64,000 bases of DNA from assembly GCF_003334815.1 (NCBI RefSeq), contig NZ_QOWO01000001.1. One strand, 5' to 3'. This document shows positions 53,100-58,515 of the stretch, one piece after another. The notes below the pieces were generated by a model. It worked only from the letters and a program-made list of their open reading frames with translations, did no database searches and was not told the DNA's origin. The first letter of the stretch is position 1; each line of letters begins with the position of its first letter. This stretch comes from Escherichia coli. Its GTDB lineage: Bacteria > Pseudomonadota > Gammaproteobacteria > Enterobacterales > Enterobacteriaceae. Position numbers and translations under genes: made by a program.

Positions 53100-53499
53100 C
53101 CAGATGAAAAATTTGCTCAAAATGTTTAAATTAACTTATGTAACAGTCACGCATTATATTAAATAACATTTGACTGGGTTGAACATAACGCCGATAGCAA
53201 AAGGAGTTATGTTCAACAATTTAATTTTAGATATACATATAACTTGTTCTATTAATAAATCACCTCGTATTCTGACTCGCCCCCTGGCGCAGCAAAGTCA
53301 GGCATTTATACTCTTTTGAATACATAGAAAATTGATATCAATATAATGAAAATATCAAATATTTGCATATAAATATAATCTTAAAGTTCAGTCTATTTAA
53401 TGTTCAATGAAATATTTCTGCCTGTATAATCTTTAAAGATGTTGAACATATATTCACATTAAATATGATTATGTACTTGTTACAAGGATAAGGTTATAT

Positions 53500-54084
53500 A
53501 TGAATAAAGTTACAAAAACAGCTATTGCGGGCTTACTTGCGCTTTTCGCAGGTAATGCCGCTGCAACCGATGGTGAAATAGTTTTTGATGGCGAGATTTT
53601 AAAATCCGCTTGTGAAATCAATGACTCTGATAAGAAAATTGAAGTTGCTCTTGGTCACTATAATGCCGAACAGTTTCGTAATATTGGCGAGCGTAGCCCA
53701 AAAATTCCATTCACTATTCCTTTAGTTAACTGCCCAATGACTGGGTGGGAGCACGATAACGGCAACGTTGAAGCGTCTTTCCGTCTATGGCTGGAAACGC
53801 GAGATAATGGCACCGTCCCTAACTTCCCTAATCTGGCAAAAGTAGGCTCTTTTGCTGGCATAGCGGCAACAGGTGTGGGTATCCGTATTGACGATGCGGA
53901 AAGCGGAAACATTATGCCACTGAATGCTATGGGCAATGATAACACGGTTTATCAGATCCCGGCGGAATCCAATGGTATTGTCAATGTTGACCTCATCGCT
54001 TACTACGTATCAACCGTAGTTCCATCAGAAATCACCCCAGGGGAAGCAGACGCTATCGTTAACGTAACGCTGGATTACCGTTAA
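53500..54084 (+). CDS. yraH: Fimbrial subunit YraH (194 aa)
   Basis: Signal peptide followed by a pilin-like sequence; preceded by about 400 bp of AT-rich DNA. Confidence 0.8.
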   Translation: MNKVTKTAIAGLLALFAGNAAATDGEIVFDGEILKSACEINDSDKKIEVALGHYNAEQFRNIGERSPKIPFTIPLVNCPMTGWEHDNGNVEASFRLWLETRDNGTVPNFPNLAKVGSFAGIAATGVGIRIDDAESGNIMPLNAMGNDNTVYQIPAESNGIVNVDLIAYYVSTVVPSEITPGEADAIVNVTLDYR

Positions 54085-54090
54085 TACGTT

Positions 54091-57413: not shown

Positions 57414-57423
57414 GGATAAAAAA

Positions 57424-58515
57424 ATGAAAAGAGCGCCTCTTATAACAGGTCTTTTGTTGATATCCACATCCTGCGCTTATGCCTCCTCAGGAGGGTGTGG
57501 AGCCGACAGCACTAGCGGTGCGACAAATTACAGCAGTGTGGTTGATGATGTTACGGTGAACCAGACAGATAACGTGACAGGACGGGAGTTTACCTCTGCA
57601 ACGCTAAGTAGCACTAACTGGCAATACGCCTGTTCCTGCTCTGCGGGTAAGGCAGTTAAACTTGTCTATATGGTCAGCCCCGTACTTACCACCACTGGAC
57701 ATCAGACAGGATATTACAAACTCAATGACAGCCTGGATATTAAAACCACATTACAGGCAAACGACATTCCAGGACTCACAACCGACCAGGTTGTCTCTGT
57801 TAACACCCGATTCACACAGATAAAAAACAACACGGTATATTCTGCTGCAACCCAAACGGGTGTTTGCCAGGGTGATACGTCTCGTTATGGACCCGTTAAT
57901 ATTGGTGCGAACACCACCTTTACCCTGTATGTCACCAAGCCATTTCTCGGCTCGATGACCATTCCGAAAACGGATATTGCCGTCATTAAAGGCGCGTGGG
58001 TCGATGGAATGGGAAGCCCGTCTACAGGTGACTTCCATGATTTAGTCAAGTTATCGATTCAGGGAAATCTCACCGCCCCACAGTCGTGCAAAATTAATCA
58101 GGGCGATGTTATTAAGGTTAATTTTGGATTCATCAATGGTCAGAAGTTTACCACCCGCAATGCCATGCCAGACGGTTTTACTCCAGTAGACTTTGATATC
58201 ACTTATGACTGTGGTGATACTTCAAAGATTAAAAACTCGTTGCAAATGCGCATCGACGGTACAACTGGGGTAGTAGACCAGTACAACCTGGTCGCCAGGC
58301 GAAGAAGTTCAGACAATGTGCCCGATGTCGGTATTCGTATTGAAAATCTCGGCGGCGGAGTTGCAAATATTCCTTTTCAGAACGGTATCCTTCCCGTTGA
58401 TCCTTCCGGGCATGGCACCGTCAATATGCGCGCCTGGCCAGTTAATCTGGTCGGTGGTGAGCTGGAAACAGGAAAATTTCAGGGCACAGCCACCATTACC
58501 GTCATCGTGCGGTAA
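57424..58515 (+). CDS. yraK: Fimbrial tip adhesin-like protein YraK (363 aa)
   Basis: ATG at 57424 with an AAGGA Shine-Dalgarno 8 nt upstream; signal peptide MKRAPLITGLLLISTSCAYA. Confidence 0.75.
   Translation: MKRAPLITGLLLISTSCAYASSGGCGADSTSGATNYSSVVDDVTVNQTDNVTGREFTSATLSSTNWQYACSCSAGKAVKLVYMVSPVLTTTGHQTGYYKLNDSLDIKTTLQANDIPGLTTDQVVSVNTRFTQIKNNTVYSAATQTGVCQGDTSRYGPVNIGANTTFTLYVTKPFLGSMTIPKTDIAVIKGAWVDGMGSPSTGDFHDLVKLSIQGNLTAPQSCKINQGDVIKVNFGFINGQKFTTRNAMPDGFTPVDFDITYDCGDTSKIKNSLQMRIDGTTGVVDQYNLVARRRSSDNVPDVGIRIENLGGGVANIPFQNGILPVDPSGHGTVNMRAWPVNLVGGELETGKFQGTATITVIVR

Follow-up and report, generated by a model that had tools for sequence, protein, structure and literature searches.

The yraHIJK chaperone–usher operon of Escherichia coli, its H-NS-bound AT-rich leader, and a conserved hairpin after the pilin gene

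Positions 53100-58515 of a 64,000-nucleotide stretch of Escherichia coli DNA (contig NZ_QOWO01000001.1 of assembly GCF_003334815.1; the whole stretch is called the window) hold the intact, already described fimbrial operon yraHIJK. The best explanation of the region as a whole is a four-gene chaperone–usher operon of the gamma kind that is silenced by H-NS and attenuated by a hairpin behind its first gene. We put the probability of this reading at roughly 0.9. An earlier note, made from the window alone, had proposed it; the observation is real, its interpretation is correct, and both were already known. The features that carry the argument are as follows.

53100-53499, plus strand: AT-rich agaI-yraH spacer, an H-NS-bound 'promoter island' and yra regulatory region (GC content; published K-12 binding)
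53500-54084, plus strand: yraH, fimbrial subunit and presumed major pilin, 194 residues (PF00419; RefSeq)
54091-54122, plus strand: intercistronic hairpin with a short U-tract, putative partial terminator and/or mRNA 3' stabiliser (fold, conservation)
54164-54859, plus strand: yraI, periplasmic PapD-type chaperone, 231 residues (PapD_N, PapD_C)
54888-57413, plus strand: yraJ, outer-membrane usher, 841 residues (PapC_N, Usher, PapC_C)
57424-58515, plus strand: yraK, two-domain tip adhesin, 363 residues (receptor-binding domain ~21-205, pilin domain 211-362)

The region is the agaI / yraH-yraI-yraJ-yraK / rsmI locus of E. coli, with four intact, co-oriented reading frames. The agaI gene ends at 53099, and rsmI is convergent, on the minus strand at 58558-59418. 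Coordinates are taken from the RefSeq annotation of a 100%-identical genome (strain 52F4) and of K-12, and those of the earlier note agree with them exactly. In a megablast comparison with 5426 complete E. coli genomes, the locus is 100% identical to strain 52F4 and 99.8% identical at the nucleotide level to K-12 derivatives including DH5a. In particular, the alignment with K-12 MG1655 has zero differences across 53060-54170, a segment that contains the spacer, yraH, and the hairpin. The RefSeq protein accessions of YraH, YraI, and YraK are those of K-12. The near-identical sequence at the agaI-rsmI locus, with all four genes annotated, marks the genes as orthologues of yraHIJK. Synteny, 99.8-100% nucleotide identity to annotated genomes, and Pfam domains thus bear out the identification as this chaperone–usher operon. 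The operon is among the twelve chaperone–usher operons catalogued in K-12 (PMC8174762).

The four products are those of a chaperone–usher system: a secreted PF00419 pilin, a PapD chaperone, a full usher, and a two-domain adhesin. YraH has a hydrophobic N-terminal leader visible in the translation, and PF00419 (Fimbrial) covers its residues 27-193 (expectation value, E, 8.6e-28). YraI matches PapD_N over residues 25-144 (E 5.1e-41) and PapD_C over residues 168-222 (E 1e-11). YraJ matches PapC_N (E 3.6e-45), Usher over the full model (E 4.6e-214), and PapC_C (E 7.7e-19). In YraK, PF00419 covers residues 211-362 only, and the N-terminal domain of ~190 residues has no Pfam match.

The structure of YraK was modelled with AlphaFold2 from an alignment of 38 homologues (mean predicted local distance difference test score 84). 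In the model, the region before residue 206 is also mostly β-strand. A Foldseek search of the PDB places LpfD (5AFO) first (E 1e-19), followed by CupB6, FimH, CsuE, PapG, and the CFA/I chaperone-tip adhesin complex. All of the top 20 matches are two-domain chaperone–usher tip adhesins. The template modelling (TM) scores are modest (~0.45), which may reflect different angles between the domains and divergence of the receptor-binding domain. With phmmer, LpfD of strain LF82 (5AFO) is the only PDB sequence match (E 1e-11), and it spans both domains. The two-domain adhesin fold, on which the earlier note had staked its reading, is present in the AlphaFold2 model, the Foldseek matches, and the Pfam assignment.

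A 229-residue fragment in an NCBI record is 100% identical to part of YraK (47% of its length) and is named 'putative prophage side tail fiber protein'. It is probably a misannotated truncated yraK.

The hairpin lies 6 nt past the yraH stop codon and 41 nt ahead of the yraI start codon. It occupies the 79-nt yraH-yraI gap; the other gaps of the operon are 28 and 10 nt. As expected of an intrinsic terminator, the stem-loop is G+C-rich, with a perfect 14-bp stem (seven G-C pairs) and a 4-nt loop. The folding energy is −23.5 kcal/mol (z-score −7.65), a stability reached by 0 of 200 shuffles. The tail, TTTTCCTTCC, has four uninterrupted T only, followed by CC. It passes the scan rule of at least five T in eight bases, and the tails of relatives range from seven T to none. 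In a terminator scan of the whole region, the count is no higher than in shuffles, and only the 54091 hairpin is individually outstanding. A consensus scan finds no promoter-like site between the hairpin and yraI; therefore, yraIJK would depend on read-through. An Rfam scan of 52900-58700 (E ≤ 1) returns only a chance viral match far under threshold, and the hairpin corresponds to no curated RNA family.

The yraH-yraI junction is found in 3281 of the complete E. coli genomes, with identity of at least 95% in all but one. In O157:H7 and strain 2015C-3101, hairpin changes are confined to the outermost and innermost pairs. In the relative at locus L005 (82% identical), the single stem change is A to G, and pairing is kept as G-U.

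Conservation of the hairpin extends beyond E. coli. We recovered the contigs of nine more distant YraK homologues (40-82% identical), which together with E. coli give ten operons from six genera: Escherichia, Citrobacter (three species), Klebsiella, Kluyvera, Salmonella, and Ewingella. In all ten operons, a stable stem-loop (about −17 to −30 kcal/mol) begins within ~25 nt past the pilin stop codon. Seven hairpins were compared with shuffles; six have z-scores of −3.4 to −8.3, and that of Klebsiella is −2.5. No sequence relationship is seen among the stems of the E. coli, Klebsiella, and Ewingella types. The six alignable hairpins share a 15-pair consensus structure, with compensatory double changes in 7 of the pairs. 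These compensatory changes support a termination or mRNA-stability role of the hairpin. The T runs after the stem are more variable: 5-7 T in five of the ten operons, short and interrupted in E. coli and L005, and none in three.

We conclude from these comparisons that the post-yraH hairpin is likely functional and that its conserved outcome would be an excess of pilin message. The mechanism in E. coli is probably partial intrinsic termination. A 3'-stabiliser role is a non-exclusive alternative, which would explain the lineages without a U-tract. The strong hairpin that the earlier note had described between the pilin and chaperone genes is thus real, and the putative attenuator role that it had assigned is supported by comparison: ten of ten operons have a hairpin at this place, and the six alignable ones show compensatory changes.

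The spacer has a GC content of 27.25% (21.5% in the last 200 bp), compared with 50.2% for the whole window. Only 0.1% of 400-bp segments are as low in GC, and the minimum of the 64 kb (26.25%) is located here. The spacer holds 51 TpA steps, compared with ~19 expected (2.7-fold). Therefore, the very AT-rich DNA of about 400 bp that the earlier note had reported 5' of yraH is confirmed, and it has the AT-richness expected of an H-NS-silenced promoter region. Small open reading frames in the spacer encode 17-36 residues on both strands, and none overlaps a conserved block.

Published measurements in K-12 agree with this. 'agaI/yraH' is a 325-bp promoter island, predicted as foreign by several methods, and is bound by H-NS in the Kahramanoglou and Oshima chromatin immunoprecipitation datasets (PMC3661553, Table 1, code K). 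The agaI>yraH spacer also contains an H-NS site and an RpoD-holoenzyme site in genomic SELEX (systematic evolution of ligands by exponential enrichment; PMC3946193, Table 3). Since the window and K-12 do not differ across the spacer, the K-12 measurements of H-NS and RpoD apply directly to the window. The H-NS reading of the AT-rich leader is therefore well founded (PMC3661553, PMC3946193).

The leaders of all ten operons are low in GC (27-38%, compared with 47-56% in the surrounding DNA). The spacers of E. coli and L005 are not alignable, so it is composition, not sequence, that is kept. The kept composition would fit H-NS-type silencing. Three elements can be placed within the spacer.

53178-53217, plus strand: inverted repeat or hairpin, probably the aga operon terminator (15-nt arms, 93% complementary)
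53332-53360, plus strand: sigma-70 promoter TTGATA-17-TCAAAT predicted for yraH (PMC3946193, Table 3; located here in the window)
53442-53469, plus strand: second promoter-like site TTGAAC-16-TATGAT, 31 nt 5' of the yraH ATG (consensus scan, 9/12 matches; weak)

The first element folds with −18.9 kcal/mol as RNA (z-score −4.9) and is followed by the U-rich AAUUUAAUUUUA; its stem is invariant in four E. coli lineages. It is probably the terminator of the upstream aga operon, a function suggested by fold and position. On that reading, not all 400 bp are yra promoter. The earlier note had taken the whole 400 bp as the yra leader; AT-richness holds throughout, whereas the first ~120 bp include the probable aga terminator. 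In addition, candidate GalR operators have been predicted in silico at K-12 positions 3287545 (yraH) and 3288641 (yraI) (PMC5110547).

Several points weigh against an H-NS-silenced, hairpin-attenuated operon. The 10-bp motif TCGATAAATT, published as a high-affinity H-NS nucleation site and optional for an H-NS-silenced promoter, has no match with up to two mismatches in 53100-53499, compared with 95 matches in the 64-kb window. In the absence of a near-match to TCGATAAATT, H-NS binding must rest on general AT-richness and curvature. The result does not contradict the published binding, but it leaves the spacer without a nucleation site. The literature yielded no transcript-level data for termination at the hairpin, and nothing relevant on intercistronic fimbrial terminators. 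In E. coli, an interruption follows the fourth U of the U-tract, and three of the ten operons (L008, L015, and L010) have no U-tract; thus, pure intrinsic termination cannot be the conserved function. One study enters the transcription unit as 'yraHI' (PMC3946193), which conflicts with a stop after yraH; the entry appears to be a database operon call rather than a measurement. Finally, the functional results of Korea et al. 2010 are second-hand, via citing papers.

The missing U-tracts bear most directly on the role of the hairpin. The hairpin could be mainly an mRNA stability or processing element, an exonuclease barrier that lets the yraH message outlive the yraIJK part. Consistent with this, L008, L015, and L010 have a strong stem without an adjacent U-tract, the E. 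coli tail has only UUUU before C-interrupted pyrimidines, and conservation is at the level of structure, not sequence. However, canonical runs of 5-7 T directly follow the stem in five of the ten operons (L003, L009, L014, L016, and L006), as for intrinsic terminators. We consider stability as the main role somewhat unlikely. Termination and stability are not exclusive, and both would give the same outcome, an excess of pilin.

The silence of the operon could also come mainly from the spacer acting as a promoter island, its many overlapping promoter-like sites trapping RNA polymerase in unproductive complexes, with H-NS secondary. The spacer is on the list of promoter islands, which are described as having suppressed transcriptional activity (PMC3661553, Table 1), and genomic SELEX with RpoD holoenzyme alone recovers it (PMC3946193). 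However, H-NS was concluded to be specifically involved with the islands, and deletion of hns raised the output of at least four tested islands (PMC3661553). Moreover, promoter-like sites are not in excess in a consensus scan of 52900-58800 (8, compared with 10.5 expected from shuffles), an observation that also makes the site at 53442-53469 weak. Polymerase trapping as the main cause is accordingly improbable.

A decaying relic, unable to build fimbriae, is a much poorer account of the operon. It would point to an element in the usher gene.

56151-56182, plus strand: in-frame 9-bp tandem repeat in yraJ, encoding Gly-Ala-Leu (GGCGCACTG × 3.6; tandem repeat finder)

This repeat has one unit more than in K-12, so that yraJ is 2526 instead of 2517 nt and YraJ 841 instead of 838 residues. 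The locus spans 5601 bp here, compared with 5591-5593 bp in most other genomes sampled, and the 841-residue predicted product is a rare usher allele. Such an extra Gly-Ala-Leu could in principle impair the usher; in addition, yra is a pseudogene cluster in Shigella flexneri (PMC6854044), and the operon is absent from ~40% of E. coli genomes. However, the four frames are intact with full-length Pfam matches, the rare 9-bp insertion is in frame and lies inside a pre-existing repeat, and YraH, YraI, and YraK are shared with K-12, whose operon is reported to be functional when expressed. Decay is therefore very improbable.

An 11-bp perfect inverted repeat (53071-53081 and 53503-53513, the right arm in yraH codons 2-5) brackets the entire 421-bp spacer. 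A fimS-like invertible promoter with phase-variable expression, which such a repeat could suggest, is rejected with near certainty: the inverted orientation is covered to at least 80% in none of the 5426 genomes (native orientation, 3259), no recombinase gene adjoins the locus, the repeat is lost in L005, and a repeat of this length is, by a rough estimate, not unexpected in such AT-rich DNA, where it most likely arose by chance.

In the preferred reading, H-NS silencing with hairpin attenuation, transcription would start within the 400-bp, 27%-GC spacer, which is bound by RNA polymerase in vitro and coated by H-NS in vivo. The coat would keep the operon nearly silent in laboratory culture. 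Once transcription proceeds, the post-yraH hairpin would end part of the transcripts and/or protect the 3' end of the yraH-only mRNA. Pilin would then be made far above chaperone, usher, and adhesin, and the read-through fraction would supply yraIJK. YraH would be the polymerising pilin, presumably the major subunit. YraI would cap the subunits in the periplasm, and fibre assembly would proceed through YraJ, the outer-membrane usher. YraK would sit at the fibre tip, with its N-terminal domain binding the receptor and its C-terminal pilin domain joining the fibre.

Published work on function and expression is in line with a cryptic, functional operon. PMC3559732, summarising Korea et al. 2010, describes many commensal chaperone–usher fimbriae as cryptic and H-NS-repressed. 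Fibre assembly in K-12 and the 'cryptic but functional' status of yra are likewise attributed to Korea et al. 2010 in PMC3559732 and PMC12711010, and PMC12711010 credits the same study with yra-dependent adhesion to bladder cells. The earlier note had called both the function and the receptor of the YraK adhesin unknown; the statement stands for the receptor, and for the function it gives way to the bladder-cell adhesion cited in PMC12711010. Expression of yra is reported upon BolA overproduction (PMC4337573), in Shiga toxin-producing E. coli associated with hemolytic uremic syndrome (PMC6033998), and, in patients, in phylogroup A/B1 uropathogenic E. coli (PMC4128348). PMC12711010 also lists yraK variants among the predictors of O157:H7 clinical outcome, in one machine-learning study.

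Others have thus already carried out most of what the earlier note had proposed as checks, namely H-NS chromatin immunoprecipitation and adhesion assays under forced expression. The region has little weight as a discovery, because the H-NS-bound promoter island and the cryptic-but-functional status are already published. It has some applied interest because of the yraK variants reported as outcome predictors in O157:H7 (PMC12711010). The comparative additions, namely the covarying conserved hairpin and the diversity of rsmI-anchored cassettes described below, are useful for questions of receptor, inducer, and stoichiometry.

The yra segment has defined edges, and a feature lies at or near each.

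53070-53099, plus strand: last 10 codons of agaI, specific to yra-positive genomes, the left edge of the yra segment (homology to yra-negative genomes ends at ~53068/53069)
58522-58547, minus strand: hairpin between convergent yraK and rsmI (10-bp stem, tail CTTCTTTTAC), terminator-like on the rsmI strand

On the plus strand, the second of these lacks a T-run. Of the complete genomes, 3270 (~60%) contain at least 80% of the locus. In yra-negative E. coli, e.g., MS8345, agaI and rsmI are 49 nt apart, and the gap holds a different hairpin. Homology between the window and yra-negative genomes breaks at ~53069, in the last agaI codons, and resumes at ~58563, at the rsmI stop codon. Since the break points are inside the ends of agaI and rsmI, the yra segment also rewrites both C-termini. 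In accordance, agaI of yra-negative E. coli is 768 instead of 756 nt with a different AgaI C-terminus, and RsmI is one codon longer. No direct repeats flanking the break points were seen in the yra-negative comparison (locus L002, 2570-2670). Separately, the annotation of O157:H7 strain 493/89 (L011) gives agaI as a pseudogene that contains an internal stop.

Four-gene cassettes of the yra kind are found next to rsmI in E. whittamii, C. amalonaticus (with agaI also adjacent), C. sedlakii, and Klebsiella, and at other sites in C. portucalensis, Kluyvera, Salmonella, and Ewingella. The E. whittamii cassette directly follows garD, and the whole aga cluster is missing there. Compared with the window, the rsmI-linked loci have 93-97% identity in RsmI and 75-96% in LpoA but only 45-69% in the Yra proteins. 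Identity of the E. whittamii usher is 73% with the ushers of Klebsiella, Citrobacter, and Salmonella but 63% with that of E. coli. Cassettes of 45-69% identity beside an RsmI of 93-97% identity, together with the usher identities, are hard to reconcile with simple vertical descent. The pattern suggests that at a fixed site one cassette type has taken the place of another, an incremental finding from ten loci. The lineage E/B1/A has been said to have 'acquired' yra (PMC6896753), a statement that replacement would refine.

We tentatively propose, at somewhat less than even odds, that the rsmI 3' flank is a conserved exchange site for Yra-type cassettes in Enterobacteriaceae and, coupled to this, that the post-pilin hairpin is a conserved RNA element. 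If so, the E. coli yra type would be a xenologous replacement and not a lineage-specific first acquisition. Likewise, the compensatory upkeep of the stem even without a U-tract would imply a stability or processing role beyond termination.

Some further observations concern the spacer and its counterparts in the window. The spacer holds three copies of the 11-mer TGTTGAACATA, at 53178-53188, 53208-53218 (inverted), and 53440-53450, the last of them overlapping the −35 element of the proximal promoter-like site. TGTTGAACATA may be the operator of some regulator or a chance repeat; the count is roughly compatible with chance in AT-rich DNA. In at least four complete genomes (L9, ES1, HS30-1, and 2017.10.01CC, locus L017), the insertion sequence (IS) IS1A is inserted at ~53217-53226. 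The site is just past the putative aga terminator and ~275 bp 5' of the yraH start codon, and the target duplication is 9 bp long, around AATTTAATT. IS insertions disturb H-NS silencing at bgl, and by analogy the IS1A insertion could do so here. The remaining strong low-GC troughs of the window lie at ~30800-33500, in the tdcA/tdcR/yhaB/yhaC region, and reach down to 27% GC. That region is likewise on the list of H-NS-bound promoter islands (PMC3661553), and it contains IS1 or IS903B insertions in several genomes.

Among known systems, the closest is the K-12 operon yraHIJK itself (b3142-b3145; Yra type of Wurpel et al. 2013), with the same four genes at the same site and a YraJ of 838 instead of 841 residues. 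YraJ is placed in the 'Gamma*' usher subfamily together with UshC, and the two are mutually exclusive, co-occurring in no E. coli lineage (PMC5717340). UshABCD has the same usher subfamily and four-gene layout as yra but a different locus, ECSF_0165 (PMC5717340). Gamma* adhesins are reported to resemble LpfD or CupB6 (PMC5717340), a likeness that our fold search with YraK reproduces.

In the pap operon and other fimbrial operons, a stable hairpin likewise separates the leading pilin gene from the genes for assembly. For papA of P pili, the hairpin is reported to be a 3' barrier to exonucleases, so that the processed message outlives the rest (Baga et al. 1988). The role proposed for the yra hairpin draws on sequence and on structure conserved across relatives.

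In NCBIfam, all four Yra proteins are nearest to long-polar-fimbria and type 1 models. Type 1 fimbriae (fimAICDFGH) have the assembly machinery and the two-domain adhesin plan in common with yra, and the FimC, FimD, and FimH models match. FimH structures are among the fold matches of YraK, and the match to the type 1 adhesin profile is weak (E 6e-10), well under the cut-off. Unlike type 1 fimbriae, yra has no fimB/fimE recombinases, no invertible promoter, and no adaptor genes of the FimF/FimG type.

The long polar fimbriae, Lpf (lpfABCDE), are the nearer relatives. LpfB and LpfD are the best NCBIfam models for YraI and YraK, and LpfC is a near-tie second for YraJ, behind an unnamed usher model. 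The gene order pilin-chaperone-usher-adhesin is shared, and lpf is also silenced by H-NS. However, the bit scores are far below the curated Lpf equivalog cut-offs (LpfB, 194.8 vs 360; LpfC, 734.6 vs 1271; LpfD, 75.6 vs 412), and YraK and LpfD are 19% identical in the structural alignment. In addition, yra has no lpfE-like extra subunit, and its chromosomal site is different. By these comparisons, yra is a relative of Lpf and not a member of it.

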